In this document: positions 6,039 through 45,400 of the stretch, piece after piece
Layout of the letters: every line of letters starts with the position of its first letter
How positions within the stretch are numbered: position 1 is the stretch's first letter
DNA from: Ascidiella aspersa
Taxonomy: Eukaryota
Direction: 5' to 3'
DNA length: 64,000 bases
Assembly (NCBI GenBank): GCA_963924565.1
Contig: OZ004613.1
Coordinates: 23,002,001 to 23,066,000, forward strand
Made by a program: the position numbers and the translations under genes
Notes under the pieces: model-generated
Seen by the model: only the letters and a program-made list of their open reading frames with translations
Database searches by the model: none
Told to the model about the DNA's origin: nothing

Positions 6039-6893
6039 ATAATAAACTTTAGTTTGGTGTTCCACAAAATTATTTTACTACATAGAGTGTTTCGCGTTTT
6101 AAAACTTTTGAAAAGTATCGATTTATACCCAGCTTATTTTTGGATGTGTTACTACCTTACATTAATACCCTCGTTCGATGAACGATGCTTTTGTATAGCT
6201 ACCTTTTCATCTAACTACGCAAGAATAATTAAAGGACGTTGTTTTCTCGACGTTATTGGCTGTAAAACTTTATAGTTTTTTTTAAAGTGAAGGGCTTGTA
6301 AGGTGTTGTTTTCTTTTAGTTCTCCTGTGTTTTTCTATTCCATATCTTTACTTGTTTACTTTAACCGTGCAATAATTGAAGGGCTTGTTTCTAGTTCTAA
6401 CAAGTTTTCGTTTTCCTTCGCAGTTTCCTTATTTCGTTTTATGCAATAACCTCGACTTAATCGCGTACAGCATTATATCGTAACTATAACTATTTGATTT
6501 TTTTGTAAAATATAATTTAATAACAACAGTCTGTAATTTCGTTATATAATACTTTATATTCCTACATTTTTTTGAAATTAATTTGACAATAAGTAATTTT
6601 GTGACAAAAATATGACAATAGAGTAATTTTGCTGCTGATATCGCTTACCGCAAAAGTGATTGGTCGCAATTTAAAGATTTTTTTTTCGATATTATGAAAA
6701 TTTATTTGTTTGGGTTTATTAAAACGTCAAATTCTTAATATTTCGCTAAACCAACAGAAAGATTTTTATAAAAACATTCTTAAATGCCTTTGAAATTAGT
6801 CCACTTTTTTATTTGTTGATTTGTTATCGTTAACGTTATACTTTATGCGGATTGCTGACCAAAATATACGCATTCAGAGAACTTTGTGTATAG

Positions 6894-13700: not shown

Positions 13701-16700
13701 GTCAAGGTTTTTAAATGGCTTGGCATGACACAGGTTTTATTGGACAAAATAAATTTGCCTTAATTAAACCTTTCTTAGAAAATGAAACAATCCCGTGATT
13801 TTAGTTTACATAAAAAAATCGGTTATATACCTAAGTTTTGCATATCAAACGGTCGAAAAAAAAAAAAATTTTGCTCGGAAAGTGCGAGCTTGTCAATTTT
13901 AAAGCATTCTAATTTGATATCAACGATGTGACTACAATTACAATAGTTTGAACTGAGAATCGCCCTGCTGCTATTTGCAGGAGACTTGACCAGGATTATA
14001 TCATTTTACAACGAAAAGTATATAACACTGATTACCGGCATACATTGCGGACATTACATAACCCTTAGAAACTTTGATATAACGTAGGTCGCACGGAACC
14101 GTTGTCGCTCTAAAAAGCTATTCGTGTCTAAACTTTTCGGTCGCGCTGAAAACGTGAAGGGATTGCGTGAGTTATATAGATGCGTGTTTGCTTAGCGTAC
14201 AATTACAAACGCTGCTGCGTAGAATAATAGGGCGTGTGCCGATGACACATTAGTCACAATGACTAAACCGACGTAATCGGAGTTTGTTACGTATTTTGCG
14301 ACACAGTATCCAGTTAATTTTTATCGGCAAGCAATGCAACCCAGTATACCAGGCTTCTGTGATTAAGTGCTTGTATAAGTTAATTGTCGAAACGTCGATT
14401 TTACAAAACAAAAAAGGGTTTTGGACTTTCTTAATTTCGTTTCTAGACGTATCCGCAGTTTGGGTGATATTTAAGGTGATCAACTTTAACGTCTAATTTA
14501 GTACACATGCTGTTTACAAACCTTGAAAGATAATTATAAACATTTTTTTGAACTTTATCTATTTAATTCTGTAAAATAAATCAGTGTTTCCTAACCCATG
14601 GGTGGCAAATTAAAATTGGATCGCCGTTTGATTTGGTTGGTTTGCCACTATAGTAGTATGCATAAGATTTGTATATTATTTAATTTGAAACCTATTAAAG
14701 CTAATTTCTTACATATTCTTAGTTTATAAAACGTTCAGATAAGATAAGGGGGTAGACAAAACTATAATTACGCTTGGTATTTAAGTCGCTGCGAAAAATG
14801 GTGGAGAAACACTAGTTTAGGGAAGATTAGGCCAAAAAATCGAATGGCCACATATTTTGTTAAGTTGACATATGTCACTTTAATAAAAATCGACAGGGTT
14901 TCTAATATTTAAACATCAATCTAGTTCACGAGAAAGTTCATGTAAACAAAGGTAAACGGTCATACCTAAGGCATTACAAATCACAAAGCGGTTTAGCAAA
15001 AGTGAAACACCTAAAACTTTTTTATTTTACCCCAGTCCAGTAAATCTGAACTGCAACCAAAGCCATGCAAGGAATAAGGTGCAAAAAAATTGGGAAAAGA
15101 GACACATTTAAAATTGAAGAAAAACAACACGTCTTTCAACTTTTGAGTCTGGTGTCGGAAATAAAAAAGACCATCGATCGATCGCTTTCAAACCCACCCT
15201 TATGATATTGAGCTTGGGCAGTATATTGCAGTCGGCGATTGTCATGGTGTCGCCGTCGATGAACTTTCGTCGCGAGACCTGAGCCTCATCGCTGTCATCG
15301 TCTTCATCGATTTCGTCGTCGAGCGGCTCCATCATGTAGCTGTTGAACTTGGCCAGCGCCGCAGTCAGCTTATGCACCATGGCTGCGCGGGCAAAAAGAA
15401 CGATAAGATTTTTTTTTAATTTGTCGCACGTTTTTTGCAGACGTTTTTTTGATGTTGCTTGATAATTATGAGTTGCGAAGCCACAAAGGTCGAGTAGAAC
15501 GACATCATGTTGATTATTAAGACGTTTCGATACGAGCTTGTATCATAACCAACACCAATATGGTTACTTGGCATATATCTAATATACACTGAGATCTGTA
15601 TACGTTCACATTACAGACTGATATCAGCACGTAGAAATTGTCCTTTTTATGATCCTCAAGTGTTTTTTTATCTACCCTATAGTGTGTGTCCAGCCATTGT
15701 TAGTTAGATGCACGTATGGGTGGGTGGGAATTTCAACGGTTATATAACCCGTGATAAAACAACACCATAGTCAAAGCATTCAGTTTTAGCTCACGTCATA
15801 AACATACAAAAGGTGGTCGCATGGTCGTGTGTGAAAAAGGGCACAGAGGCCCTCGGGAGCGTTGCAACGATATTTCGGTACGTGACGAACACCAAAGGGC
15901 GTTCAATAATGAGGGGCACCCCGTCTGAGCTTAACGAACTGTTTAAAACACATTAGGGATGGCTCGGCATCGAATTAAATGCGGCGACAGCTGAAGTTCA
16001 AGACAAGAAGTGACGCCATAGAAGGCTCTGAGGGCTAACCATGGTCGCCGGGTTTGGGGTTATTAGGGTGATCTGAGCACCCCCAGCAGAAACTGGGGTC
16101 AGCCCCCACCCTCCTAAACAATGATAAATCATACTGTAAAGAACTCTGTATTTCGTTGGATGCGTGCGATTTGGGACTAAATTTCCGTATAATTTCTGAC
16201 AGTTAGTCAATCAGCTACTATATCAAGCATAATTCTCGAAAGACATGAATCTTTTCTAAGAGTTCAATTGTGTTGATTTCGTTTTAAATCTTGCAATAAG
16301 TCACAAAAATTACAAACTGAAATATTGATATTAGAGGTAGCGCAACTTCTTGTTGTGTCTCCTCATAAAAAATGAAAAAATCACACGATGCAGTTAGCCG
16401 CTGCCCCATCCCGGTTCTACAAGGGATCCGGTAAACATAAGACAAGATACATTTACATTTCCAAAACGTCAAAAGCGACCCAATGCATCTGCAGCCAGGC
16501 CCATCTAAATCCGAAGTCAAAAAATCTAAGCAATAAACGAAAAAGCCTCGAAACTGGCGACTTACCCTGGCGCTTCGGGTCGTTGGGGTTGCCTCGGAAC
16601 TTGGCGAGCGCCGAAAACTTGGCGAAGATGTCGTTGCCGACCGTGTTGCTCTGCTGGTGCTTGCAGGCAAGCTTGGGGTAGCGTGGCGGGTAGAGTTCGG

Positions 16701-19700
16701 CCTCGATGTAGTCCTCGCTCTTCTGGATGTCGGTCAGCTCCTCGCCGTTGAAGAGTAGAAAGGGCGGGTTTGCTCCCATAGCCACGTTCGAAAGCTGCTT
16801 CGGTTTCCTGCAGCACGGTTCGCCAACACAAGGTGTTAGAGCAGTGGTTCTCGACCGGGGTGGTGCGGCACGCTGGGGTGCCATTTCTAATACTTAGGGT
16901 GCCAAGAGATATTTGGGTATCTTTGAGAATATGAATATTGCTCAACTCTTATAACCTTTTGTGTAAGATTAGAGTGAGGTAAATGCAAGTATAACTTCCT
17001 AGGTTGTTTAAGGGTTGATGTGTGTTTTTCCAGTTTATTTTTTTGTGAAATTCTATAGTGTTTGTGATTTGTAACATTCTATAGTGAATTTGTGACGAAT
17101 AATCTTGTAGGGTGCCGCAATCTATTTAATATTTCTTAGGGGTGCCGCTAGCCATAGAAGGCTGAGAAACACAGTGTTAAATAAATGCAGGGATAACGGG
17201 CGGCTTTCTAGCAATACGACTGAAATTGGAGTAACGTCTGATGTCGAAATTAACCCAACAAGACCTGGCTATAGCGGGAATTAAATCTCAATATTTTGCC
17301 TAAGCAGCGACCCATCCTAACTTCATCACTAACTCAGACTTGGAAAAGTTTTTTCAAATTAGATTAGAATTATCGTTTCCTAAAAAAACAAATTTCAACG
17401 AGAATCACATTTAATTATTTACAACCAATTTAATTTAATCGCAAAGTATTCTTATAAGAATGCGAATGGTAAATATGTGTGTGCTAATTTTTAGGCCTTT
17501 TTATGCTTTTTAGACTGTAAAAATTACATACAAGTCGTTTCAACCAAAGAGTTTTAATTAAAATTCTGTGTTTTAACCGAGTCACTAAAAATGCCGTTGG
17601 ACAAAGTAGCATTTTTCGAAAAATCCGAATTAGATTAGAACTAGAATTAGAGCACACAAGCAATTCATAAATTAGATTAGAATTGGAATTAGAATTAGCC
17701 GCATTTTGCTCTATTTCAATGACTAGAATTAACTAGTTGTCCAAGTATGCACTAACTGCAACAAAAGAAGGGCGTATCTTTATGGAATCCAAAACCATTG
17801 GCAGCAAGTTTCTGATTGTCGATCACAGTTCCGCTAACGCGCATATAAAACTCAAAGTTTAAAAAACAGGATCAGACATTTAATGCCAGCTAATAACATA
17901 GTCGAAATATATATTCCTTTTAAAAAAATGTCTGATCCTGGTTTTACTCGTTTTTTTTAACTTTGAGTTTTATTGTTTAACTTCGCCAATGTCGTTTTCC
18001 TTGCAGTAGCTTAAACTCCCCCCATTACACACGTCTAACCTAACAAAAAGCAAACTGTCCGGTGCCCAAGCGGCAAAACGGTGGAGTCCAGTTGCTACTT
18101 TTCCTATTTCCGACGAGTTTAGGTATTTTGCGTAGTAGAAATTACTGAGTATTTGGTTTTATTATGTCTTTGGTTCTAATACTCTAGTATTATAGCTTCT
18201 TTCGGAGAATAAAGTATATTTCCATGGGTCTTATTGTGTGCTGTCCTATGTACTTAATGCAGTGAAGGGGTGGGTAAGCTAGATTGGCACAATAGCTGAG
18301 TAGGACAATGCTTACCTTATAAAAGGAGATAAACCTAAACTGCCAAAACTTTTCAAATAAACGTATATTGTTTAAAACATTAAAATCGTATTGTCCCGAT
18401 TTATTTTTTGCCTTGGCTATAAACAATAAAATAAAAAAATAGTTTTTTATTTTCCAAAACGAGCGTCTGTTTATAAATTCTTCTGTGGTTTTGTTTGATT
18501 TAAATCGGCGCAAAATAGTTGTTATATAACCATTCGATTTATTTCCTACACTATAGTATACTGTAATTTAGTCCACGTCAATTTGCCTGGCTACTCACGT
18601 GGCTTTGTCCACCGTGGTGACGTTAAAGACGACCCCCTTGAGCCAAAGCATCATGAATAGACGCTGTGAAAATGGACAGCAGCCGATGCATTCTTTGTCC
18701 GAGCCAGCCTGGCACACAAAAAAATGAGGTTTGCGTAGGTCAGGATTATATTTTTTTCGCGTTTTGGCAACTTTGCCCGGTGGTTCTTAAACCGTGGGTG
18801 TTAGACGCTTTGCGGAAACTTTCACAGGGAATTTGACTGCTTGCCAGCAAAATCAGTGCCGGGCTTTTTCACACTACGATGTTATTTTTTGTGCTGTTTT
18901 ATTGTGAATTGGTGGCACATCATAATTTTTTTACTTTTTTTATAAACTGAGGTTATTTAACCTGGAAAAAATTCCTTTCGAGGTGGCGATACTAATAGTT
19001 TAAGAACCACAGGGTTTAGTTATGAAGTGCTATTAGGTAAAAAACCAAGGGTCTTTCACAGAAAATGTACTATGCTGAATATTCAGCCGGGACTCGGAAT
19101 GTACGGCAACGAAAAAATTGCGGGTTGTTCTTTCTTAGGTTTCAATTACGTGTATTGATATATAAATCATTTTGAACCGAAAATTTCACGACTGAGAAGA
19201 AAAACCAATAGTGAGGCTTTACGTTCTGCTAAACAGGGGTATCTTGAACGTCTTGTCGGCTGCCAGTATAGTTATCTTGCAGCTTAAAACACTGTACTGC
19301 CAGTACGAATATTCCGAGCCCCGTTTTTATATTTTTACTTATAAATAAATTGGATTACATATGGGTCATGCAGTGCGGGGTTGCCACAAAATTTGAAAAA
19401 AAAAATTCAAAAACAATTCCTTGCTATTTAAATACCTGAAATTGGATCACATTTCGAAAAATCAGTATAAATGTAGAAAATTGTTTTTACAGCTGTACTT
19501 TTCAAACATATAACGTACATACAAAAATAAATTTAAGAAAATTCAAAGTCTTTGTGGCAACCCGGCCGTAACAATAAATAAGAGAAACCCAAAAACATCA
19601 AATATATATATATTATATAACTGTTAAAGTTAAAAACAAAAAAAGACAATCATTTGAAGGGCATTAAAAACAAGGCCAGTAAATATTTAACAAATTTTGT

Positions 19701-22700
19701 ACAACAAAAACCCAAAATCTGCGATCACAGTAAAATAAAAACAGCGGTTGTCAGTTGGTTAATGGTTATAGAATAGATTTCCATACCGAATCGCGAATCA
19801 GCGTTTCGATCGTGGGGTTAGGTTTTTCACTTTGGTTTTCGATTATTTGCAGGCAGGAATGTTAGCAACATAGGCAAAAGCAAGACTGCTTGTAAAACCT
19901 TGATCGACTTGTCGTTCGCACAGAGCTCGCCATTCCAGGAAGCAATGCAATGAAAGCGATGATATGACCCGCTTGAATGGTTGTGTTGGCGCCGCCAAGT
20001 TTTAGCAACTGTTTACGCGAAAACTTTAAACGAAATCTCTACATTGCGAGGCTGCGATGGTAACACCTTTTTATTTACCTTAAACTTCGACTGCATAAAT
20101 AGGTCGAGAATTGTGAATTTGCGCTTACAAGATACGGCAAACAAAGGCAATTTTAAACGTCTACTGAAGTATTGTATTTAGAGCAACTTTGTGTCTGTTT
20201 CACGATACACAGCATATATACACAATACACGAATGATGCGTTTGAAGTTACCCATATTCACGCTTCGAGCGTATAAACGTAAAGAACAGTACCTGCCAAA
20301 ACATAGTCAAACAAATGTTCCTGCTCGTAGGAAAAGTCTAATACGAATTGTTAAACCAAGCACTGCAATAGTGCTATTATGGGTATATGTGACTGCATAT
20401 AACAAGTATGTGAAAATATGCAACTATGAATCACATACTAAAGTTGAGGTATGTTCTGTGTTGCTTAATAAAAAAAACATAGCGCACCGTATAGCTGACG
20501 ACGACAAGTGACAAAATAAAAATGATTACGCCATAAAACGAAATTTAACCCTTTTGTGATGCGCTACAATACTAGGTAGAGTAAAACGAACGACATCCGA
20601 AACTTCACTAAGTATTTTACGAAGCTTCGCGTTGTAACACTATTTGCTTGGGTCCTCACAAAAAAGCATGTGTTTGCGTTAGAAGACGTTGGAATTCGAC
20701 AAACATTACGTTTTTACGCGCAATTTGATAGTAAACGGGTTGCCACTTGTTGGGACAAAGAGCCGTAAAAAGCGGCTGGTTACGAACGGACGTTTGCTTT
20801 CCCTTATCGCCGCCCAACCGCATTTTTGAACCGGGCCACCGCCCACAAAGGCCGACAGAAGAGCACACAGCCACCCGCATACCGGCGGATTGCGTCACAC
20901 TATATAAAAGCGGGCGGCCCTAATATAGCGCACCACAACCTTTCGGCGCTGGGCTGCAACGCGCGAACAAAAGCCAAGGCGAAAAATCGGGTTCCAAAAA
21001 AACGGCGCTGTGGTTAATTTTTGCTCTCGTTGCTATTCGATTATAAACTTGAACGCAAATCCGTTGTTGAATCGGGACGAAAGCTGTGTTTACAATCCTC
21101 GAAAAAAAAACTACTTGATTTGTACGTAGCGGTAGCTTTTGCCTGTTGGGTCAACCACAACTCCTCTGTTATTTTGAGTACAAGGCAAGCGTTTGGTAGG
21201 TCGGTGTTCAACGGAGTTATTTTACATGATAACACAATTGGTCCAACAATTAGAAAATGTGTAAAACTGCCAGGCCTTCTAAACGTTTTTTTTAAATGTC
21301 GCAACAAAAGCAAATCCGCATCGTTTCATTATTGATTAGCGATAGGTGACTGTTATGTGACACCGATCCAAATTTCTTTATTTTTTACATTAATTGACCT
21401 TGCTATCGTAAATTGCTAAAACAAAAATATTCACAGAATGTCCTACTGTAGCGTTGACAAAAAAAATTCAGTGGAGTAAATATTTTTAAGACTTTACACT
21501 TGCTTCGCAGGAGGGGAGGGGGGGGGGGGAGCAAGACAACAGGGCAACAGATACATACCCGGGGATTTCTGACTTGTTTTTAACCTACTGAGATAGGAAA
21601 GCACCGCCGCGCCTTTTCAGTTAAAATAACAACAGGGAGAAAGAAATTTTAAAAGCTCAAAACCACGTACGGGAAAACAAAGGACCAATGAAACCGAAAA
21701 CACGTTGGTCTGACGAAGCGCAGAAACCACTTGACAGTTGCATTTGACAATGAACAGCAGCTAGGCCGTGTACAAGCGCGCGTTTCATTTCGTTCAACGC
21801 AATACTTCACGATTCACGCCAGTGGAGCGTTGACGGTTAAAGTTCGTATTACTGTGAAGAATGCGAAATGTGTAAAAACTCCCTGATGTCAATTGAGACG
21901 AAGCGAAACCGACTCAACTCGCAGACCTGTCGAGATGCCGTTTATCCCAAGGGAAACGCGCCCGCGGAATTCCGGGTTGGACTTTGCAAAAACAAAAATA
22001 CAGTCCGGGGTTTCGCAGCGATTTGGATTACCCATTATGTTTTCAAGTCTCTCTATAGCAGTGTTTCTTAACTTTATTTCCAACAAAGCGTAAATATGAG
22101 AGTGACGTTTTGACGACCAAATTCTCTTCACTTTTTACGAGTAAACAAAACAGGAGACAAATAGAATAAATAATTTAGAATTTAATTGATTTGAGTCATG
22201 CCTTGTATTTTTCGCAGTTTTCTCGAATCGTGAAAAAATCCTGCTCAGAACCGATCTAAATACATCAATACATGTGAACTACTGCAGTCGGTGACCCAAT
22301 CAAATTAAACGGAATGGGTTGAAAAACATTGCTTTATATCTATAGCGCGGAAACACGTCTGGTCGTCTGGGGTTTACGAGCGCGTTTAGAATCCGTTCGA
22401 AGCTCGTTAAGCAGCAGCCCTTGGCGGCCTTTTATTTTAAATTCGGATTCGTGTGAACAGCAAACGAAACAGCGCCTTACTGATTACATCAGTGCGACAA
22501 TAATCAACTTTATAAATAGGAGCCAAAATCATAAAGTTGAAGAGAGGCGATTTTCAACGCCAAGGAAACAGCTTTGGCCTAAATACAAAAACAGACCTTG
22601 ATGGGGAGTAAATGCTATTTTAGTAAGAGGTGGCAATACGAAATAGCAAACACATTGCATTGCGGTGCCTAATCTGAGGTCAGGTGCCTAATTTGTTTTG

Positions 22701-25176
22701 CTATTTTTATCTATTTATGCACGCCATTAAAAAGTAATCACATTATACTTTAGAGATTTGTCAACTGAGTAAAAGGTGGCTATAATAAACTGCATTCAGT
22801 ACAGGTAAAAAAAGATCACCGTAATGACCTACGGTTGCGGTAGGATACTAGAGAAGCAGCTTCAGTCTATCGGACAGCTGCGCTTTATTAAAATTAAATT
22901 ACCTGTTTTATATAGGCAAAAGGTAATCACGCTAACGATAGAAACCAACAGACGACCTCGTGCGTCAACTTTGCGTTGCAAAATAAGCGCGAGCACGGCA
23001 AGCGAACACGAATCGACTTTTGTCGCAGTTTGATTTGCCCGACACGTTTGTAAACAAGTCCGCGATGCTTTCACATCGATAGATGGGCGGCAACGACCCA
23101 GCTCTAATTGATTGCTACTGGGCGCTAGCCTAAATCGTATATCGTCATTGCCAGAATGTCGAGTCATTGGCCCAACGCATGGACGCGGTGGTAAGTAGCG
23201 CATTGCAAACGTCTATTATGGCGTCATCACACCTAATCATGCACTTCCACAAAGTGAAGCATGCAAATGTGCTGGCTGCGGAGCACATTAGCAAATTGAA
23301 ATTCGCGAAAAGTTTCGTAGAGTAAAAAAAACACAGTTTTACAAAGTGAAACACGAACAACTTTTTTAACGCTTTCTTTCACAAGTCAAAAAGTTGAGCA
23401 TTTTTGCCATTCTCACGTTTTATAAGCCTTCGGCCCTCTGTGGAATACGAATAACACCAGCGGATCGCGTATCAGTGATTACGTCACGAAACGAGCCCTT
23501 ACAAAAACATTATCTAGCCACTAACCAGCAAGTCACAAAGCAAGTAAACTAAACGACAGGGCAAGGCGGATTACCAGGTTCTAAATAAATCATCAAAGGC
23601 GTTGAACGAACAAAGGTTCACGGCAGTTCGTTTAGGCGCCGCAATTAACTTCGCAAGTCGCAGTTTAAGCCTTTTAGGGTGAGGCGTCATGTGAAGCCTG
23701 AAAGCCCAAGGGACGTTAACAGCTCAAGTTGGCCTCTGTCATCGTTCGCAACACAACAGCAGGGCTGGCCTTACGTTCAAATTAAAAATTTGGAAAATAA
23801 CCGCGCTATAATTTTTGGGGGGGGATTGGCCGTTTAATTTGGTAAAGAATTTTGTGTCGCCGTATGATTTGGTTGGGTCGCTGACTCCAGTAGTTTTACA
23901 TAGCTAGATTCCTTGAGATTGACTCTGAGCAAGATTTCTACAAAGTCTGTGAAAGTTTAAAGCAATACGAAGTTATGGCTCATGTCTATTAAATGTAACA
24001 TCACTTATGCTATTGTCTTGTGTTTTGTTCACTTTAAGCTTACGAAAAGCTTAGTGAATAGATTTGACTCGTCAAGCTTCGCTGTTAAGCTTACGCTTTG
24101 CAATTTAATCGCCGCAAAAAAAGGTTGAGAAACACAGACCTTTAAACGATATGGATTGCCGTGGAACTTATGTAAACCTGTCCCAAACAAGATAACGTTT
24201 TCAGTCGGTTTGGGGCAATGTTTCGGTCGTGCTTTGTCTGTCAAGCGTATACAAGACTAGCGCTTAGTTCGTCGGAAAATCGATGTTTGGCGTTACGCGC
24301 CGTTTGTCAAGCCAAAACGGTGCGATTTAGTTGGCTAGAGAGGCAGCGAATGGTTAAAGCAACGCGGAAAACGTTAACAAACATCCATGCAAAGACGGCA
24401 TAACAAAGCGCAGCAAACAAACACGTTAACTGCCAATGAAAAGGGAAATACCAAATGAATAACGCAGCTCATTAGGGTTGTATGTGCAGCTAGCAATGAC
24501 GAGGGGATGGCAAATGGCAAGTGAAAATCACTCATTATTTTGCCAAATCCTTTTTTAAATGTGTTATGTGTTTAACATTTCACAAGCCCATAGACCATTT
24601 TTATGATGAATATCAACATACATATTGGTTTTCCTGCGTTACTGGCCAACTAAAACGATGAATTAGAAGGCAAAAAGTAATATACAAGTTTGAAAAACAA
24701 CTGTAGATCGTATAATTTACTGGGTATCCAGTATTTGTCCGATTAAAGATCTTTAGAATAATAGCTTTTAGTGGGGCTTAGAGTCTCTCGTACTACACTT
24801 ACTTAAAAAAAATTAAGGGGTTCATTGTGCAGTTTTGTTACGTTTTCGGAGAATATAGGTGTGGTGAACTAAGACAGTTAAACTTTATTTAAAAAAGCGT
24901 CCTCTACGAAGGTTTCTCTAAATGCTCTCGGCACTATAAAAAAAGCAAAGTGTCAGTAGCCACAGTCTCTGGTTAATGGTTACATACATGCGACCGCACA
25001 ATACATTCAGAGCCACAAAACAAAGCCATCAGGTCCTGTTTTTTCTTCAGCAACTGGGTACAATCATCAGCCGGTCTTACCTTGACGAACAAATTAATAA
25101 CGTGCTTTCGGTCGCTCAGCGAATTTTGCTCGCTCCCTTCCGGCGTATACTGGACAGAATTTTCTTCCTCGCTCAT
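10594..25176 (-). CDS. CLIC: CLIC short isoform of 266 aa, starting in exon 25176-25081
   Basis: ATG exon [10 protein letters not shown]...HVINLFVK|gtaag splices in phase 0 to AGSD...; 801 nt in total. Confidence 0.88.
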
Positions 25177-28100
25177 TTTGCTAGGAAGCCCGGTCTCTCT
25201 TCTTGGTGTATGTTTTTAAAAGGAGTATCGCGACACAGCAGCGTGTCAAAAACGGCTCAGCATTAACAGATTACGTCAGGCGGTTTACAAACAGCACAAA
25301 GCCCTGGACTGTAAAGGGAAATTGTTTTTACTTAAAAGCACGCACTCCTCACAAAAAGAGAGCGCACACAGATTTGACGGCGTAAACAGCATAAACCAGA
25401 CTGGCATTGGGCTGCTTAAAAAGGCTACGTAATTTGCTAAGCTAGACCTGCAACGCCTATTAAACACACAACACCACACTTAATGATACTAATAAAAAAA
25501 TGATAAGGCTGAACGTGCTAAGAGGCTGCTGCAAATTTCCCGTCAGTAACCAACTGGGGTTTCACAGGCCGCGAACAAAACGTATCTCGCAACAGAAAAG
25601 ATTGTTCTGGTAAACACCTACACATCATCATAGAAGCGTCTGTAGAGAAACAACTCCCGTGAGCATATAGCGCAGGCTGACTGCGAGCTTGGCGGCAGAA
25701 TCGTACACTGTCATCAGCAGTCCAGCAGCGCGACTGACTCGCCGCTGCTTTTTCGGCGATTACGAGCCACTCGGCAAATTACTGTTTTCGTCGTCACGTC
25801 GGTCCGCTTTGGCGAGGCGAAATGACCGAAAAGAATGGGCTGGTTGTGCAAACAGTTTCTGCCTCACTAAACCGCGTGCCGGGGCACTCTGTTCGTTCGT
25901 TTGCTTTCCACACAGCAAACTTAGCGGGGAGCCCTTCACGTAATAAATAGCTGCGCTCGCCTATTGTTCGCGAAGTTTCTGTCCGCGCCACAATTGAAGC
26001 TCGAATTGACGTTTTGCCAATCGCGCAAGCTATGCACGAAAATGCGGGTTTCGAAGGGTCGCAACCTGCCTTGCGTTGCTAAGAACCTAACACTGGCTGT
26101 TAAAGCGTTCCGCTCAAATATTCCCTGGGTAAACAGCAAGGACAAAGTACAGCTTAATCAGGGCGTCAAGAATCAATACCGAGCAAAAGAACTGACAATT
26201 CGTTTGCTAATCGACTCCTGGCAATTACTACACGCCTCGCACTCAAAACGTAGCTTCTGGCTATCGAAGAAGCGCCTCTACCTGATATGGGCATACAGTC
26301 TCAAATCGCCCGAGGACTAACTGCGGCATACCGAAGCCGGTCGACTTACGTTCTAAACGTCGAGCAGCGGCAGTTTTGTCGTCGGCTTTCGACAGTAGCA
26401 AGGTACCTTGGGGACCCAGAAGACAGGCGGGCCTGAGACCGGCCGGCCGAGAAAGAAAGTTTTTCACGGGTGCGCACTAACACATGGGAGTATGGACAAT
26501 AAACGACGAGCCGCGGCAATTAGTTCCGATTCGCACTTTGCTGCTAGTTGGGCAAACTACGTGCGCGACGGGGCCTAAAACCGACTGAGCGAACAGCACA
26601 GTGCAACTAGCAAGCTGGCTGCGTAGCCAAGCCGTGCTCTAATTATTTATTCAACAGCGCGAAGGTCGTTATAATAGGAAGTGCAGCGCCAAGGACGAGG
26701 ACCGACCGGCGCTGTCTGCGGCTGAGATGTTAATTTAGCTGCTGGACGTTACAACAGAGGGGTGTAGCTAGTTGGCTCACCGTGGCTAATGATTAACTGG
26801 TCCTACGACATGGCAGCTCGGTGCATTGGCAATTGCACATGTCAAACACCGGTTAATCGCTTATATGTAGTTATGTACACGTGTTGCGTCTATATAATAT
26901 CAGCGACGACCCATGGAAATCTGGGGACAGCACAGAACACAACACCAGTGCACCAAAATACCAGAGGTGAGCAATGTTCAAACTCTAAATGCCATTGCGC
27001 TTTTAAACTTTACTTAACACTTTGACGCTTGATTAAACAAAGTTTCCTACACACCCTATTCAATTATAAAATTGTTAAAGTCAAACATTAACAAACACAC
27101 ATATGTGCTTTGTACGCTACAGGGCAATAGACAACTTGACACAACGAAGCAAAATAGGTGGCATATTTTCTTATTATAAAATATTTTCATCATTTGGAAT
27201 ACTTTTTTGTTGATATATGTTTATACATTCAGGTTTTCAACAAACCACACCAACAAATCATATTCGGGGAATGCAAATAGACCTGTAAAATAACATCTCA
27301 GAAAAGTGCACCTTGCAGCTATGTGTTTTTTTTTTTAATTAAACAAAGGTGGTAGCGATTGGCCCAGGTAAACATATTCAGCGACCTACCTTTATAAAAA
27401 GCACAATTTTTTTTTCTTGGTTGTTACCAGGACTTTCATTGCTGTCACCATTGACAACACAGCTTTCACTGGATGATTTCTGTTGAACCAATCATGAAAC
27501 AAATAAATAAAGATTTCCAAATTTAAGGATCATGCAAATCTTAAAAATAAATGTTAAAATGATAGTACCCTTGCTTGTTCATTACTAATTTATTTCTGTA
27601 AAATATAACTTCACCCAATGCATGCTTTAAAGGGAATAAAACATAAACGTCATTAATTTTTTTTCCAATGTTTGATAAGAACTTAGATTTTGAGTTTTGT
27701 TTAATATAAAAAAGGATGGGTTAGTAATATGACTTTATGTATTTCGAGTTAGATTGAACCTTGATAAAGAGAAAAACAACGTTTTCTGTTTGTTCGCCTT
27801 CAGGATTGATAGTTCGAATTTCAGGCTCTTCCTGGAATTTAGAGTTTTATGCAACATTGTAAGTGAAATAACGGTATTATCAAACTAAGTTCTGCGGACC
27901 GATTGCAGTCCACCAGAAAGTTAAAATCGGGCTTACAGCATCGTTCAGATTCATTAACTGATGAACCATAAATTTTATTTGATAGTAAATAATTATGTAT
28001 CATAATATAAGTATATACTTATTTTATTTGTAAGCATATTGTTTAGATTTAAGGGACCCTTTTCATTCAAGTAATGCCAAAAAGTTAAAAAGTAATAAAG

Positions 28101-31100
28101 CATATATACGGAAATAGCCGGACAACCTTGTTTTATTCCATTAAAAAAAAAACTTAGGGATTATTACCAACTCATATATTCAGACATTTTTTTAAATTAT
28201 CACAAATTTGCATTGACCTTCAGCATAAACCAAATTGCCACATTTTGCATAACCTTTTATCAGTAACCTATATGCGATGTTTGACTTTAGATATAAAGCT
28301 GGGGTATATTATCATTTTTCGAAAACATGTAATCAAAACCAAAGTTTAAACCCTAACTTAAACTGCCGATGGTGACTTTTAAACTTTACAATAGGGTACA
28401 TAAATGCTAAATCGGCCAAAAAAACAACAAATATAACCATACATCCTCCGTCTTAAGGTTTTCAATCCCCTGAACAACTTGGTCAGCCATGCTTGCTAGA
28501 GGCACAGGTTCCGCTTTTTCTCCGTTAAGTGATGATGCAGAAGAGGTCTTCTCAAAGTCGAATTGATGCGGCGGAGGGGGCAGGTCGTCCTCAGAAGCTT
28601 GATCTGATTGGTAGTGATGCAAGTAGTCCTCGGACTGTTGTTCAGCAGTGTTGTTGTTGTCAGGGTTAGCGTATTCACTTTCACCCTATTGAAATTATTT
28701 GAATAGGGTTTTCAATACAGGAAATGTATTTAGTAATACATCTGCAAACTAAAGCAAAGTAAAACTCAAGAACATACTTAAAACAAACCTTTGACTAAAA
28801 ATTTAAGCAGTGATCAAAAATCCTATCACATTTTCATCCCGGGGGTTTATTGCTAACATTATTTGGGTTAGGCTGCAAATTAGATTTGGTTATGAGAGGG
28901 TCAAGTATTGTTATTATATTTACAGTCCCATATTTATTTCATCCTTGTAATTTTAATTTTAAAACGTTTCCTTGCTGCAAAAAAAGTGGTAGGATTTTAG
29001 ACCAACGCCAAAACTTGTGCTGTGGACATACACTATAAAGAGTTTTACTCGTATTTTGAGTAACAAGCCAAACCATATTATAAAATTTGCGTATTAAATT
29101 GCTTTTCTGGTTTAGTTTTTTCCAACCAGTCTCACTCTCAACCTTTCTAACTGAATGGATTTTACTGTTATGCTGGTCACTACATTTGATTCAGTGCGGA
29201 GTAGGCCAACTGAATACAATGAATCACATGGTAATCTAAACAAACTACTTTGAAGGCAATACAATGCTGCGTGTTGAAAAGGAAATCGTAGGTAGATGAC
29301 GCAAGCGATTCTCGAAGTAAAGGTACCTACTCTGCCCAACTGCACAACTTTTTAGTCTTCAATAACTCAAAGTATATATTCGCTTTAGGAAGACATTCGA
29401 TCTGCGTTGGGCATATTCTGTTCTAAAAAAGTGCCAAAAACGGCAGACCAGCGTCCGCATATTATACACATATACACAATGCCTGCATTTGCAACAACTT
29501 AAGAATGTACTTTTCAAATCATTTCCTGTGGTACTGATGTGACATATTGTTCGTGCAGGCCTCTACGAACCAGAATAGTGGCACGAACAAGGGCCCAAGT
29601 ACATAAAAGAGTCTTCTGCACTGTGTCAAGTGTTCGTGATGACACCACGCTCTTCTGCCCACAGTCGAGCTTGTTCCTATGATAGCCCTTCGCGAAACGT
29701 CTCAAGCCTTTATATAGGACAGCCACCATGTTTTCCTTTATTAGGAAAAAACTAAGACTGATTTCCCTGAAAATCTGTCTTTTGTATTGATAACAGTTCT
29801 ATTTGATCCGCCAAATAGTGTGTAACTTAAAACAGAGCACTTAACACATTTATGTTATAGACATAGACTAAGGTTTAACATCAGAAATCCGACAGTCGGT
29901 GTTTAAACGTATGTAGGCTACAGTAAACCTTGTATGCCCTACATATGTGACTTGTGTAGACACGTGTGGTTTTCGCGCCCCGTTCGGGCGTAACTCGATA
30001 CCCATACTTTCCAATGGATTTTCATTTGCGGGATAGCCAGACTGTGGTAAAAAGAGTACACCATTGCAACAAATTAATGTGGCCGTATTTAAAAATCTGT
30101 ATTATAAGGCTATAAGATTGGTGCCTTTACCCGTAAACAGGTGACAACATTGACATTAAGGTCCGCTAAAAGATGGTATCGACAACAGTTTGACATCAAT
30201 TTTGTTTTTAGCTATGTTTTACAATACAACGTGTGGTTTGGGTACACTAGGCACGGATCTGTAATGTAGCTTAATAATAAATTTCAAAGCCAAAAAGGTC
30301 GAGTAGATCGACAGCATTATGCTGTCGATCTAACTCGACCTTTTTGGCTTTGAAATTTATTATTAAACGTGTGGTTTCCTATCTGACAAGATAAAATTTC
30401 CCCAAAATACAGTAATAACCACTAAACGGGTTGCCAAACATTTTATCTAAAGCTAAACAGTAGGCTAAACGTTATGGTTGACACGGTAGGCCTATTTGCA
30501 TGATCCAATTTTACCTCTCATTCTTTGCAACAAAACATATACTTTAGTTTGACTGTTGAAGTTTAAGTGTTATCGCATTCCCTACGGGCGATCTTAGGCA
30601 TAAACCATGTATGACCAATGGTAAGAACGGGTGTGGGTTAGTTTTTGGTAAATAAAATGAGTAGGACTCGGGACATGACGGAGTCAGTTTATTTTGCTGG
30701 AGTCGAATCAAGTAAACAACGTAAGACTAACCGAAGCCGATGTGCGCATGCGCAGTAATAATTTCGAAATCGATTATTGAATGTTTTCCAATCACGCGTT
30801 GTGTCTAAATGAGTTACATAATACCCCGCGAGTGTTAATTGATGTATATTGTATGTCCACCCTATGTTAGTTAAGTAAATGGGTGGAACGTGGAATACAG
30901 GCCGCAGAGTCGCACTCCGGACACGGGAATCCCACTCGAGTTTATTTTTTGTGGAGTTCTATCAAAATTTACGGCACCCTATGTTTTATAGTGTGTAGTT
31001 AACTTAACATACGTTTGCTATAGATAATCATGACGGAAAAACGTTATGACTAACTGGTTTTCAAGAAAACAAGATGTAACAGTCGCGTTAAAAGTTAAGC

Positions 31101-31583
31101 AATACCGCCCACTGGCGGATAACATATTTTTGTAAAATAAACTTCAATAAACACAGTTTTGATAGAATATTTTGTAAAGTCAATTTAGATAACTTTATAA
31201 TACGTTTATTTACATGCATTTGTTGCTATTATTATGATAACAATAAGACATAAAATATTAGTATAACTTAAAGCTAGTTGTTTTGAACAGTAGTAATATA
31301 TTGGGTTTAAGCACCACTTGGCTGCAGTTTTTTTGAAGTTGATATATAAAGGAAGCAAATATATTACTAAATATTTTCAGAAAACCCTATCAAAGTTTTT
31401 ATTTCAAAGACACAATGATACAGATTTTAAACCAAGCAGTCCTTTGTAAATGCTACAGCTCTTGTATGGCAATCAATTCGATGGCCACTTGACGAAAAAA
31501 GCTATCGTACTTTAACGCATACAAGTGTAAAATAAAAAGCATAGGCTACATACCTCGTACACTGGGTCGTTAGTGTTATCCAT
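10594..31583 (-). CDS. CLIC: Chloride intracellular channel (CLIC), long isoform of 349 or 355 aa: exons 31583-31554, 28685-28443, (27831-27760 or 27479-27390), 18708-18599, 16807-16566, 15382-15198, 10761-10594
   Basis: Core exons give [72 protein letters not shown] and EEFTQTCP, all CLIC hallmarks. Upstream exons are phase 0 with canonical splice sites. Confidence 0.85.
12031..12542. mobile_element. hAT-type MITE (TIR cagacttggacaactag; subterminal TTAGA/TTAGAA repeats)
   Basis: 17-bp TIR; exact 8-bp TSD ccctgtaa. Confidence 0.9.
15198..15382 (-). CDS. CLIC: CLIC exon (acidic foot loop and ADCNILPKL)
   Basis: cag| acceptor, |gtggg donor, conserved DG..T.ADC.LPKL motif. Confidence 0.93.
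15457..15620. mobile_element. Fold-back family B remnant, copy B3
   Basis: aagccacaaaggtcgagtagaacgacatcat...gacgtttcgatac is homologous to B1/B2. Confidence 0.6.
16566..16807 (-). CDS. CLIC: CLIC exon (KPKQL...[13 protein letters not shown]...YPPRYPKL...DIFAKFSA)
   Basis: cag| acceptor, |gtaagt donor, conserved motifs. Confidence 0.93.
16842..17174. mobile_element. hAT-like MITE about 35 bp from a CLIC splice acceptor; relative at about 56194-56508
   Basis: cagtggttctcgacc...ggctgagaaacacag; ggtgcc motifs; imperfect TSD beginning tgtta. Confidence 0.7.
17335..17749. mobile_element. hAT-type MITE, same family as 12031-12542
   Basis: High similarity to the first copy; exact 8-bp TSD cactaact. 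Confidence 0.9.
17845..17973. repeat. Imperfect inverted repeat (hairpin)
   Basis: ataaaactcaaagtt..caggatcagacattt pairs with aaatgtctgatcctg..aactttgagttttat. Confidence 0.75.
18599..18708 (-). CDS. CLIC: CLIC exon with the CPFS active-site motif
   Basis: [37 protein letters not shown]; cag| acceptor and |gtgag donor. Confidence 0.94.
19376..19565. mobile_element. Small MITE
   Basis: Inverted ends gggttgccacaaaatttgaa / ttcaaagtctttgtggcaaccc. Confidence 0.6.
25081..25176 (-). CDS. CLIC: CLIC alternative first coding exon (short isoform), ends INLFVK
   Basis: ATG, LFVK motif, |gtaag donor. Confidence 0.88.
27390..27479 (-). CDS. CLIC: CLIC alternative internal exon ([30 protein letters not shown])
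   Basis: cag| acceptor, |gtaggt donor, 90 nt, phase 0-0, ends in LFIK. Confidence 0.75.
27760..27831 (-). CDS. CLIC: CLIC alternative internal exon ([24 protein letters not shown])
   Basis: cag| acceptor, weak |gttcaa donor, 72 nt, phase 0-0, ends in LFIK. Confidence 0.72.
28443..28685 (-). CDS. CLIC: CLIC long-isoform acidic, low-complexity N-terminal exon (GESEYANPD...DDLPPPP...LKTED)
   Basis: tag| acceptor, |gtatg donor, 243 nt open, phase 0-0. Confidence 0.78.
30240..30365. mobile_element. Fold-back element family B, copy B1 (31-bp tail plus near-perfect ~47-bp-arm hairpin)
   Basis: Exact 12-bp TSD aacgtgtggttt (30228-30239, 30366-30377). Confidence 0.8.
31554..31583 (-). CDS. CLIC: Probable CLIC long-isoform start exon ([10 protein letters not shown])
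   Basis: Strong Kozak context caccATGG and a phase-0 GAG|gtatgt donor. Confidence 0.6.
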
Positions 31584-33756: not shown

Positions 33757-34217
33757 CAGGGGTGCACAACCTTTAGGCTTTTGTCGGCAGCATAAACAGA
33801 CTATATATTTTTCTCACGGCCGCCAGAAGAGATGATATATAAATTTGTTTTGGAATTTGTTCGATAGCTATAGTTGTATCGGCGCCGATCTTATACCAAA
33901 TTGATTATGTATTTTCGCCATGATTAGCTTCATAATGCAGTGAATTTAACCTCGAAAGGATTAGTAGACAAAACTCGCTTTAGCGTTGACAAGTAAACAA
34001 TAAACTTGACGAAACTTGTCAACGCTAAAGCGACTTTTGCGTAATCACCTGGAAAATAACCTTTTAGGCCTTTAGGCCTTAGAGTTTTAATATTGGATAT
34101 ATGAATATTGTCACAAATCACGTCGTAAGTTAGGTAATCTTAAAAAGCTTGCAGTGGCCGCATAAGTAATTGTCCAATGCCACATGCGGCCGTTACTGCC
34201 ACAGGTGTGCACCCCTG
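33757..34217. mobile_element. hAT-like MITE
   Basis: TIR caggggtgcaca / tgtgcacccctg; near-TSD agctaaat / agcttaaa. Confidence 0.75.
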
Positions 34218-39455: not shown

Positions 39456-42400
39456 GTAAGTTGAAATTTATAATTGAATCTAAATCACGTTTATAAGCTA
39501 CCAAATTTAAGCCTAATGCAGTTGTTTGTTTTCTAAATTTTGTAAACCATCTGAAAATCATACGTAAACGAATTAAAACCTTAATTGACGCAACTGTTTG
39601 AAAGAACATAAACTATTGTGTAAAGTTAAGAAATAAATCAGCAACTCGCGTTATGTATGTGCGGCATGATATGAGGGCGGCTGTGGCTATAATGATCAAA
39701 TAAATGCGTCCTCTGTGTTACCTGAATGTCCTGCTTCTCTACTTATTTTAAACTGTTTTAGTAGATATATTGTTTTAGTGCACTAAAAAAAGGGAATTTG
39801 GTCATAAACTTGAATGATCACTATTTGATTTTTTTATTGCGACTTATACTGTAATGGAATGCAACCATTTTAATTCCACGTTTGCCCTACAATTCTAAAA
39901 AAAGTTGTTTTACATTTGCGATGAAATTTAATTTTAAAATTTTTCTAAAACCTTGTACTATAGTATAATTTCTGTGACGCACACTAATGGGGGTAAAATC
40001 CACTTGTTTTTGTTTTTTTCATATGGCATTTTAAAGAAGACACTTAAGTAGATTTGAATTCGAAAATACACTGTCATTATGGTTTTGACGATAACTAATT
40101 TAAATGCTCAATTGTACGTTTGTTGTTTCAGGAATTGCTCAACGTCTGCCAACCCCTGTACGTATCACGGTTCCCAGCAGAACCCTGACCCATGTACGTG
40201 TTAATTGGATGCAACCCCCGACAATTAAATATGCAAGGTTTCTTCTAAAGGTCAGTAATTTATCCAAACCAAACGAACTAATGTGAGTATATCCTCCCAA
40301 GCGTACAATGTGGTAAAATGCAGCCCAATGACTTTTTATGCGTTTCAATACCAGCCATATATCGAAAATTGAAGTTAACTATATTGTATATGTGTTTGAC
40401 CAGTGGCTTTTTCCTTCTCTCGACCTTTCCCTAGTTTTGGGAGCAACTGAGTTATCAATTAAGTTTGTCAGTTTAACCTCTTGTAAACAGTCGACTTTAT
40501 TAATCAAAATATTTGGGGACAGCGAACGAATTAACCAGTGGGTCGCGCGACCTTTCCAATTTACGATTTTACGCTTTGCAACCTGTGAGAGCCATATGAG
40601 CCAGACTTAATAGTTGCCTATACGTCACTTTAATGTTTTGTCTGTACCTGAATATTTTGTGTTAAATTGCTGGTAAAATTTGCTCACTTAATTACATTAA
40701 TATTGTACATGCAAATCAGCTTTCTTGCTCTTTGCTTAGTGTGTGATGTATGTATTTGTTTTTTAACAACTTAATTTTCGTATCACTCATAGTTTTAGTT
40801 TGACGACACTATAATTTTATATTATATTTTTACTTGGGCAACCGATGACTAGCTCTAATACCTGATATACTCTTTGTTGAAGAAGAATAGACTTCCAAGT
40901 CGGCTAAGATATTTTTAGAAAATCCAGTAATTTGAAATAGAAATTGACAGATAACACTTTTTTGGGCCGATACCGATAATCGATTTTTTACAATTTTGTC
41001 AACCGATACCCGATACCGATACCGATTATTTATTTACCTAAAAAAATGTTAAACATTTGAATTAATTGAATATAAAATTCAAAAAACGTTTTAGATTATG
41101 TACCTTAATTAATTATTAAACTATTATTTTGCATATTAACTTGGCGTAATGCTAAAACCCATTTTTTTCATTAAAAAATGGGTAAGTTGTTTGTTGTGCA
41201 GGTAAAATTATATCTTATTTTCGTACTAAAATATCGGCCAAAATATCGGCCTACATTTACCGATACCGATATATCGGTAGAAGCCAAATATCGGCCGATA
41301 TTATCGGTAAACGGATATAAGACTCCTAAGACTTCACACCTCTTATATGTGCTTCACCCCATATAATTCCTTTTTAATAAGCGTAATAAACACTTTTTTG
41401 TGAACTAACCCTGATATTGCGTTGTCCAGATTTCTCCACGCGCCACGATCTTGGACCCTGAGAAGCCCGACGACACTTCGCGTACTTTCACCGACCTGCA
41501 GCCCGGCATCGCCTACACCGTGACCCTCCGAGGAGAAACCAGCGACCGACGACGTTCGGCGCCCTTGAGATTTCACATTTGGAGTAGTAAGTGAAAATGG
41601 GGCCTTTAATTAATTTCTAACCGCCGACCAGACTTGGACAACTGGATATATTTTGGCTTTTTAAAATTAGATTAGAAGAACGTGAATGCTAAGTATTCCT
41701 GTTCTGATGTTATTCCTTTAAGCATATAGCCTATGCTTTCCAAATATTACACACAAGTCGTTCTGACCAAAGAGTTGTAATTCAAATTCCTTTTTTCAAC
41801 TGAGGTACTAAAAACGCTGTTGGACAAAGTAGAATTTTTTGGTAAAATTCGAATTAGATTGGAACTAGAATTGGACGCATTTTGCTCTTATTCATTGAAC
41901 TAGAAAACTAGAATTATTTACGTAATAAGAATATCAAAGCCCATACAGATCTAAACGGAAAATTTTCAACAGATGTTGAAAATGAATAAAGAGTTATTCG
42001 AAACGTCCAAAATGAGACCTACTTCTGTATGGGCTTTGATATTCTTATTACGTCTTACTACAACCTCCAACCATTATGCTCCATAGAATTATTTAGTTGT
42101 CCGAGTCTGCCGCTGCCGCCGACACGGGTCACGTAAATGTATGGATGCTTATTATACGTTTTTAACAAAACAAACACTTGTTTTTTTAACAGAAACATTT
42201 TTTAAACAAAACTAGTTCAGAGGACAGTTGCATTGAGACTTTTAGTGATTTAAAAATGTGCCGATCTGGCGCGAGGTATTATTATTTTTTTGGCCACACT
42301 GAGAGACAGATTCGTCATTGTTCCTTTACGTAATATACAAGTTTGCTCAATGACATCGTTGCATTGCGTAATTCTAATTTAGGGGATGAAGATGGTAGTT

Positions 42401-45400
42401 TTAACGATTTATGAAAATAACATACTTTATCGAAGAATATTCAAATAATCAGCGTAATACGGTTTACAGGCTAGGATCGAAGTTACATAAGTAAAATTTT
42501 GTGCTTTATCGTCTTGTTTTAAAAGGGCTGCTTTGATTGCACAAGCACAATGCGTCCCATCCTACTATATAACAAACGATTACATTTGTCGATGAAGGCA
42601 CACAAAACGACACAAATTTCACACAAATATGTAATATTTGGTTAGTAACGCTGAACGAGCGTTTTTGTCACCTGTAAATAAAGTAACATTAAGGGCTCAT
42701 TGAATTAATTACCGAAAAAACTATTTCACGATTTTCGTTAGATGTGTATACGCTGTTCATTTTATAGAATTTATTACAAATTTGACCATTATTTATCTCT
42801 ATACGCCTACATTAAAAACGGATTACTCATTACGGTCGGGTCTACGTGACCTTTGCGATTTTTTAAGTTGACGAATAATACGTTGAAATAGTGACGTTGT
42901 AATCGTGATCGGTATGCGCCTACACTTGAAGTTTTGTCAGAGTAGTCCAGCCAGCTTATTAAAATGACGCGTTTGGTTGGAGCGTTTCGGCTTGCGTAAT
43001 CAATTTGACCTTAAATGCTGAGCTAAATAAGTTGTGTTTAATTTTATTCAGCGTTTGTGTTACGTTTTGTGTAAAACTAATGCTGAATATATTTGTAGAT
43101 GTAGCTAAATCAACCCACATTTTCGCAGTTTTAATTAAATACGTTTTGGATTAAACAGGTAATAACTAAGATAATATTTCTCATACGTTTCATTCCGTCA
43201 CACAATAAGCCTGTTATATTAATAATTCGAAGGTTTTCGTTGTAATCTTATGGCACCAATAACAATTTTTACACATTGAAGCATAATGATTGAGGGTTGT
43301 AGTAAGACGTAGTGAGAATATCAAAGCCCATACAGAAGTAGGTATCATTTTGAACGTTTCGAATAACTCTTTATTCATTTTCAACATCGTTTACTTCTGT
43401 ATGGGCTTTGATATTCTTACTACCTCTTCACACTTGTTTCGGTTTGTAACTATAACTTCCAGACAGTCCGCTTTAAATTTGCACTTAAAAGGACATGCTG
43501 GCGCGCACCAGAGCAGTTAAAGCGAAATCGCCGGGCGGCGCCGTTAACTTCTAATCCTGCCATTTTGTGGTCTCACGCGGCTTTGAAACGTGTAAACAAT
43601 CCGGCTGTTGCTGGCGGAGACGTTTGTCGAATGCAAGTCAAACTCCACTAAGTTGGATTAAAACCTCGAAGTTCGTTTTAGAGCTCGTTAGAAGTGTTTT
43701 CTCCAAACGTTGGCTAAATAACTTACCTCGATTGTCTTAAATCTGGGTGTCCAATGTTGAAAGTTGGACACGGGCATTTATATTTTTGACCGATGTGGAA
43801 TTTTATTGCAAAACTTGACGCGCATTTTGACCGATTCTCGCTTTTATATTGTAATTTTTTCGATTTTCGTTTTTTATTTGTAAATTTTAAGTGTTTTTTT
43901 TTTGTAAAATAGTTTGCTGTAGCCTAGTGATTGTATAACTTTTTTTAACTATAAACACAATTTTTTGTTTTTACAAAAACATGCATATACCCCATCAACA
44001 TTTTACGGACCCCGGCGGTCAAAACAATTTGCAAAGGCCCCCAATATATATTCTATCACGTTGGGTCGTACACCAAATCGGACCAAATCTGTATATCTTT
44101 GGCATACGCTTTGTGTGTTGCATATAACCTTACCTTGATCCGGTATATACACTTGGATATACGGTTTAATTGGATGAAGAGCACTGCTCTTAAACATTTA
44201 ACAGAATAAACAAACCTTTGTTGCACATTAAGTTTAAAGATCGTAAAAGGTTGACAAGCCGTTTCTATCACTGCATGTAACAATAAAAATTCATCTCTTG
44301 GGCATTCAAAATGTCACGACAGTCAACCGACCAAATTATTGTGCATAATATTTAAAGCGTTGAATATTTTTCATCAACAGAACCTAAAAAGCCGAGCAAC
44401 CTGGTGCTTTCGCCGATTAGGCAAGTCAACCTGGCTGTGAAGTTGGCGGAATACGAGGACACCTATTCTGCTCCTGTGGTTGGGGTCCACGTCGACTGGG
44501 AGAAGCCTCAGGGACCCACAGGTGCGTTAGTATTATGCAATACCGGCTGTACTGTTGGTGGAGGTTTTGTAAACAGGTAAACTTTTCCCTTCCGTCGAGA
44601 TTTGATTGCGAAAATTGATTTTCCGTGTCTGGTGATAAGATCAAGTATACAGTCAAAACCGGTTTCGCGATAGGCGCAAAAACTCCGATGGTTTTTGTAA
44701 GCATGTGCGCTTGACTTCGCTTAAAATGCCTACGGCTGTACGGAATTACCGTTTTCTTTTGTCGGTTCCGCACCTGAATGTGTATGCTGATAATAAACTA
44801 ACCCTGATTTAAAGTAACGAAGACGAACAGTCGGCGGCGGTTTTTTAGACGAAAACGTGCCGTCGCGGCTGTCCTATTGCACCCCTTTTTATGACAGCTA
44901 CAAAGCGCTGTGCGTTGTTGGCGTTTGTTGTATAACCAGCGGTTTGTATATGCCGGATTGTGATAATTTGGCGGTTTCAGCAAACTTTTGACTTCGAATT
45001 ACCGGGAAAAATAACAACCACACAAAACAGACAAAATACATTGCCTATAACGGAAAATAACAACCGAAGCAGTGAAAAAAAAAATCGTTGTCAAAGTGTA
45101 GCGTCATCACTAATTTCAAGGATTTCTCAACTAAAAAATCGTTGACCTGTTGGGAATTTGCTATGGATTCCAGGGGTAGCCAACACGTCGATCGCGATCG
45201 ACCGGTGGATTGTCACATTTCACCTGGTCGATCGCGTCGAATATGTGTTACGTCATTACAGTGGCTGTCGCACACAAGCCATTACAAAGACCAATTGTTG
45301 TCTGGACAAGCCTAATTAAGCGTTCTTTGACGTAACAAATTAACCTCCATTACTGGCTTGGAATGCAATTAACGCTCAAAATGTTTAATAAGTGTTCTTG

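Follow-up and report, generated by a model that had tools for sequence, protein, structure and literature searches.

A probable 5′-truncated Penelope-like element in a CLIC intron of Ascidiella aspersa and what its miniature hairpin relatives may record of integration

The insertion and its host intron

The window, i.e. the whole 64,000-nucleotide stretch of contig OZ004613.1 that was analysed, contains a CLIC chloride-channel gene on the minus strand, and one intron of its long isoform carries a short palindromic insertion. All positions refer to the window; features without a strand are listed as unstranded.

28685–31552, minus strand: host GT-AG intron of the CLIC gene, long isoform (5 spliced RNA reads)
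30228–30239, unstranded: left copy of the 12-bp target-site duplication (TSD), AACGTGTGGTTT
30240–30270, minus strand: 31-bp tail of the probable Penelope-like element (PLE), a 3′ extension of the terminal repeat that encodes residues of the element's likely N-terminus
30271–30317, minus strand: tail-bearing arm, 47 nt, the 3′ end of the pseudo-LTR (pLTR); 1 difference in 78 bases relative to a long natural copy
30318, unstranded: central T with a template match in neither arm, non-templated or a later mutation
30319–30366, plus strand: inverted tail-less arm, 48 nt, element positions 32–78 counted from the tail end
30366–30377, unstranded: right copy of the 12-bp TSD, AACGTGTGGTTT

The next CLIC intron was located at 27480–28442 (8 RNA reads). 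Translation of the exons gives an N-terminal extension that is acidic and ends in '..KIVLFIK', and a downstream exon matches CLIC structures with E = 1.7e-14. A sequence-only reading of this DNA had placed the insertion in the first intron of the long CLIC isoform, which was confirmed by the RNA reads in the sense of the first intron after the ATG exon, a non-coding exon further upstream being possible. A separate first exon of a short CLIC isoform lies near 25083–25180, the CLIC exon at 27479 has an in-frame stop just after the donor, and contigs of run X4 span the CLIC intron region unspliced at 22000–27479; the unspliced cover and the stop at 27479 possibly represent a retained-intron or short isoform.

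The exact 12-bp TSD, the 31-bp tail and the near-perfect palindrome described in that reading were all found, the hairpin measuring 96 bp with a near-perfect stem of ~46 bp and the total insert 127 bp without an internal ORF. AACGTGTGGTTT occurs only twice in the window when both strands are searched, and since neither pair of flanking bases agrees, the repeat length is exactly 12 bp. Base 30366 is at once the last base of the arm and the first base of the TSD, corresponding to a 1-nt microhomology, and the tail-less arm carries one extra A near 30332. Compared with longer copies, the tail-bearing arm breaks off precisely at the ATG with which the ORF likely starts; this point lies downstream of the hammerhead motif described below. 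Folding of the plus strand gave −79.7 kcal/mol (z = −14, none of 200 shuffles as low); the CLIC pre-mRNA corresponds to the minus strand. A search of the window against Rfam at gathering scores returned 0 matches.

Relative to a young long copy, the insertion differs by one tail base, one inserted base in the right arm and the central T. With 2 private differences over 125 bases and an exact TSD, the copy belongs to a young subfamily, which bears out the young age proposed earlier, and the near-perfect stem is accounted for by this recent origin. X1 and X2, which stem from the same study (X1 possibly being the source), each provided one contig that leads from within the right arm across the TSD to the flank. 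No empty allele was detected, as judged from the lack of an element-skipping joint among 15 of 60 joints at an X5 depth of only ~3–6. X2 departs from the reference at 30184, 44 bp upstream of the TSD, and continues with ~700 bases of other sequence, likely a second, polymorphic insertion.

The copy itself is passive, being devoid of RT, endonuclease and hammerhead; its probable fate is neutral removal by splicing, together with the intron and with no effect. Family sequence was found in 496 RNA reads on the hairpin, 99% of which continue into unlike sequence, as expected of other loci. No sign of A-to-I editing was seen at the hairpin: the A>G differences that the RNA shows at 30273 and 30279 have similar shares in a DNA run and are thus subfamily variants.

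Longer copies and their coding capacity

The insertion is a member of a repeat family termed family B here, with a further family, A, in the same window. In longer family-B copies the terminal sequence is followed by a short non-coding stretch and then by an ORF with a reverse transcriptase (RT). Pfam RVT_1 scored above cut-off in 2 of the 4 ORFs scanned (E = 1.2e-7 and 2.5e-9), and the RT has DKG and YVDD motifs; three partial ORFs gave no Pfam match (0/3), and a PDB search with the family RT returned nothing below E 0.2. The long-copy protein is 51% identical to database proteins with RT and GIY-YIG, and the top database relatives carry RVT_1, several of them also GIY-YIG. Its C-terminal domain (VVYKLTCSCGASYIGQTRRNL..RVKEH) shares 48% identity with P0001 over 303 aa, and the aligned region of P0001 carries Pfam GIY-YIG. 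The CCHH motif of the endonuclease (EN) is present as VVYKLTCSCGASYIGQT-R-H-H-E-N and aligns to the Pfam GIY-YIG region of P0001 and P0002. The family's own EN region gave no direct Pfam GIY-YIG match (0/3 at E 0.01, 0/4 at E 1). Between RT and EN no CX2-5CxxC zinc finger was visible in the alignment, and this absent linker would fit the Penelope/Poseidon clade by the criterion given in PMC8557442.

On the minus strand, tail arm plus tail form an open frame from the ATG at the hairpin centre. In longer-tailed copies this frame runs on to PKYIGIYYGKAF; of 120 homologues compared, P0079 gave the best match, a weak one (score 48) to its N-terminus. No full-length or intact copy was found, and the N-terminus and the source copy thus remained unseen; in this search one query began in another repeat and only 3 matches included a part of the ORF, and the tail end was prolonged by 2 to ~35 nt in some copies, none of which reaches the ORF. 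The copy at locus L163 is a short direct tandem. Two further ORFs were noted at other loci: a transposase-like one of 640 aa, presumably hAT-like, which splits a long B copy (L046:3428–5347), and an LTR-integrase-like one adjoining a B copy (L044:5485–6201).

Since its terminal sequence is the same as in longer copies with RT plus a GIY-YIG-like domain at the C-terminus, the insertion at 30228–30377 is very probably a 5′-truncated PLE, consisting of two 3′-end copies head to head, one of them with the 31-bp tail.

Hammerhead motif

Just upstream in the longer copies lies the motif CUGAAGA-U-GAUAC..GUAUC-GAAACGUC with a 5-bp helix I, which by its sequence matches the minimal hammerhead described for the pLTRs of metazoan PLEs in PMC4209133 (for dimeric hammerheads, see PMC6765202). 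Common to the hammerheads of PMC4209133 and the long B copies are CUGANGA with one extra base, a helix II with G10.1-C11.1, GAAA-CG-UH, a palindromic helix III and the 5-bp helix I; the U3-A8 core variant of the same paper recurs in family A. Unlike those hammerheads, the motif, known here from sequence, is confined to the longer members, and the copy at 30228–30377 stops short of it. For seven sequences from three families of this genome, 84% of the cells in helices I and II were paired, with changes on both sides in 8 of 10 pairs; slid controls were 19–41% paired, a lenient comparison since the structure was drawn from the same sequences. A search of 8 loci against Rfam at E up to 10 gave 5 matches, none to a hammerhead family. 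Hammerhead-like cores of other families flank B copies at L137:2841, L019:2788, L072:2930 and L163 (minus strand, 2255), and these are probably more PLE families.

Family A and further repeats in the window

Apart from the insertion in the CLIC intron, the following copies of both families were annotated.

5845–6044, unstranded: family-A copy, sister PLE family, same design
41920–42082, unstranded: family-A copy with a U3-A8-type hammerhead core at 41976
43280–43428, unstranded: family-A copy
55313–55583, unstranded: older family-B copy with tail, both arms and a degenerate hammerhead core at 55486; 74–79% identity to long copies
15452–15546, minus strand: older family-B fragment without tail end; no inverted arm found

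Longer A copies lead into an ORF homologous to that of family B (46% identity over 419 aa to the B RT, 42–43% over thumb and EN; RVT_1 at E = 3e-10), and their hammerhead core is UUGAAAA (the U3-A8 variant) or degraded, in the same layout as in B. At the DNA level the ends of A and B are marginally alike, 41 and 64 of 2000 shuffles scoring as high, and tblastn of PLE proteins against the window gave no match. The two families had been described as sequence-unrelated, which agrees with the marginal likeness of the hairpin DNA but not with the long copies, where homologous RT and EN and the same hammerhead layout are encoded. On this homology A and B are sister PLE families, and their common design is inherited. 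Of the proposal that one mechanism acts on two lineages, the single insertion mechanism for both families stood, but the lineages turned out to be related.

A T-run/GG junction at the tail had also been noted; among the first 30 copies, 29 have a T before the tail, so that this feature is general in family B. Some of these junction T bases are element-derived, the element running on as AAGTATATTGG.. past its usual end. The copy 'B2' with a tttt|gg junction could not be recovered, the other family-B pieces of the window being 15452–15546, without a tail start, and 55313–55583, with CACT|GG.

Copies of A and B lie in or near the same CTAG-ATAA motif (window 41920–42082; L010/L011; L028), at least two such cases being inside one other repeat family (window 12031–12546, 17347–17753, 41629–42113); the motif is possibly an insertion hot spot common to A and B. 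At L030 a family-A hairpin is located ~140 bp from a B hairpin. The window also holds a short hairpin with 26-nt arms (96%) at 33969–34039 that matches neither A nor B, a 27–29-bp minisatellite at 46780–46907 and a degenerate repeat of ~193–243 bp at 49935–50643.

Genome-wide census of family B

The search of the organism's own genome (308.6 Mb) yielded 1076 candidates; 40 were scored, many of them with 99% identity across the first 78 bases. Exact matches to the first 25 tail bases occur at 374 genomic sites (reversed control: 0), and arm copies at least 90% alike were estimated at ~1,300 from an X5 read depth of 8,295 at ~6.3-fold coverage. The tail end is common to all copies and the inner ends differ. 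For the census, the 374 exact matches were taken in order of their coordinates up to the 72nd, minus one retrieved before, giving 71 tail ends; 10 copies with shared flanks were dropped, leaving 61 independent copies, a sample chosen for an intact tail.

A TSD was detected in 39 of the 61 copies (23 exact), compared with 4 of 400 mismatched pairs. TSD length was 9–16 bp with a mode of 12 bp (19/39), and the TSDs showed a symmetric bias, with a terminal T in 29 and an initial A in 21 of the 39 against a background of 31% each. An inverted arm was present in 45 of 61 and both TSD and inverted arm in 34 of 61. Element length in the 61 copies was 46–387 bp and tail length 25–45, with a median of 30–32 (n = 31 clean junctions). 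The tail arm measures 29–333 bp in these copies and up to ~1.7 kb in long ones, which shows variable 5′ truncation from a fixed 3′ end. Arm lengths vary freely among the 61 independent copies, so the arms are not fixed TIRs, in line with the earlier expectation. Copies without TSD or tail had been named as evidence against the shared design; 22 of 61 lacked a TSD at the threshold used and 16 of 61 an inverted arm, but PLEs normally vary in this way.

A minority of B copies (L157, L159, L163) end 13 to ~35 nt past the usual tail end; the outer start site is a range of positions, not a point. B copies on C1 with flanks in common (L192–L195, L196–L201, L179–L180) were multiplied by segmental or tandem duplication.

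Alternative explanations and integration mechanism

The outer ends of family-B insertions occupy two almost constant positions ~31 nt from each other, and the inner ends are free. In 17 of the 45 inverted copies the tail-less arm extends >15 nt deeper into the element than the tail arm, in 17 the reverse holds, and in 11 the two agree within 15 nt. At their centres, 18 overlap by ≥1 nt, 5 are blunt, 10 have 1–5 extra bases and 12 have more.

These data bear on how the same element could have become a hairpin. Self-priming by fold-back of one strand, maybe on an antisense template, has been proposed for the Penelopes of A. vaga, and palindromes at inverted junctions are read in this way in PMC3846280. 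Self-priming would suit the copy at 30228–30377, which is perfectly symmetrical with both arms ending at position 78, as well as the 18 of 45 centres that overlap by at least 1 nt. However, the depth of a fold-back copy is limited by that of the strand being copied, and the tail-less arm exceeds this limit by >15 nt in the 17 copies mentioned, and in L016 it reaches ~1.2 kb against ~0.15 kb of tail arm; only 4 of 45 copies are symmetrical within 3 nt, although later deletions could blur this picture. Fold-back is therefore considered unlikely. As it cannot exceed its own template, and as nothing in the tail-less arm could have served as template for the tail, the arms were most likely templated separately, and we regard it as probable that they were separately primed.

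If the hairpin were a non-autonomous element in its own right, one that is transcribed and mobilised anew by PLE proteins, this would explain that most copies are short (46–387 bp) and that family sequence occurs in the 496 RNA reads. However, no two independent copies inspected have the same centre, copies with identical centres also have their flanks in common and are segmental duplicates, and 99% of the RNA reads continue into unlike sequence, as from other loci; this explanation is very unlikely. Still less credence is given to an exapted intronic dsRNA, i.e. a miRNA-like precursor or an editing substrate regulating CLIC. The ~46-bp near-perfect stem in a transcribed intron would be compatible with such a role, but it is explained by recent origin, the A>G differences at 30273 and 30279 are also in DNA, and Rfam had no match in the window.

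Terminal inverted repeats together with a long TSD are known from Mutator- or FB-like elements, and a MITE or fold-back DNA transposon of this type, to which the short AT-rich hairpin, the 9–16-bp TSD and the high copy number might point, is refuted by long copies encoding RT and EN instead of a transposase, by the one-sided tail, owing to which the inverted repeat is not terminal on that side, and by continuously varying inner breakpoints, arm ends and lengths, leaving it a negligible probability. A LINE or SINE was rejected, as the 3′ end is unique coding-frame sequence and not poly(A) or a simple repeat.

Separate priming of the two arms was further examined at the outer junctions. Microhomology at the tail-less junction was 1.65 versus 0.74–0.93 in permuted data (two-sided, n = 31, at most 5 of 20000 as high) and at the tail junction 1.97 versus 0.90–1.22 (two-sided, n = 38, 0 of 20000 as high), with junctions placed against two reference copies and not against each copy's true parent; the AT-rich target preference was partly controlled and could inflate the overlap. 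Decay after insertion can also make arms shorter. The asymmetry of the arms and the microhomology speak in favour of priming from both strands of the target.

According to the proposed mechanism, the insertion would be made by the element's own RT and endonuclease. The endonuclease would nick both strands with a spacing of ~12 nt, and the resulting 3′ ends, frequently with T or TT as their last bases, would each pair by 1–5 bases with the element RNA and prime a cDNA of their own, one starting at the tail end and the other ~31 nt further in. Both cDNAs would stop early, their inner ends would be joined, and gap filling would give the TSD. On balance, we lean towards reading the miniature hairpins as a genome-wide fossil record of this process, i.e. 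of a double nick with a 12-nt stagger, after which the two 3′ ends anneal to the element RNA by a few bases and prime at two start sites ~31 nt apart.

Relation to known systems

In L1 twin priming, two target 3′ ends prime on the element RNA, giving an inversion inside the TSD; the second primer lands far inside, so that little is duplicated. In family B, by contrast, the two primers would be placed ~31 nt from each other, the hairpin contains almost the whole sequence twice, and there is no poly(A).

The layout of TSD, tail and inverted pLTR is already in print for PLEs (PMC3846280, PMC8557442, PMC8969392). The sequence-only reading had missed this published Penelope signature of head-to-head inverted ends, a 30–40-bp tail and a short TSD. 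In PMC3846280, the EN+ PLEs Pen2a_Av and Pen2 of Adineta vaga are described with a 31-bp tail, an inverted pLTR and an 8–10-bp TSD. Family B resembles them in the head-to-head inverted pLTR, the 31-bp tail at one end, the short TSD and the AT-rich targets (PMC3846280); the cover of the first ORF codons by pLTR and tail, described for those elements in the same paper, may also apply to family B. It differs from these A. vaga examples in its TSD mode of 12 bp versus 8–10 bp, and the copy at 30228–30377 is only 127 bp long with no internal ORF; self-priming is the explanation favoured in PMC3846280.

For PAc, a Poseidon PLE from Anolis carolinensis, cutting and extension of both strands in vitro are reported in PMC11167929, with two RT start sites that bracket a tail of 30–40 nt. 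PAc and family B are alike in having RT with a C-terminal GIY-YIG and a hammerhead near the ORF start, and the insertion proposed for family B would have in common with PAc that both target strands are cut and extended, at AT-rich sites and from two start sites (PMC11167929). The PAc start site is described there as non-homologous to the cut DNA, in contrast to the 1–5 nt of excess microhomology at family-B junctions; PAc is of a different family, likened here by description (PMC11167929). Neither a two-primer model for PLEs nor ascidian PLE palindromes were found in the literature covered, subscription journals and Repbase lying outside it, which is weak evidence of absence.

Conclusions

The single insertion in the CLIC intron matters little: its retroelement class is a known one, and the genome has at least 374 such stubs with the tail. 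As the stubs resemble MITEs or miRNA precursors, mis-annotation is possible; a longer copy scored 60 bits on a miRNA model, below the cut-off of 90. Taken together, the stub junctions are a large natural data set on the integration step of PLEs. If the two-start-site mechanism is true, a single step would account for tail, inversion and TSD; the self-priming model would then need revision, as would the view, taken from the in vitro data, that the start site has no homology.
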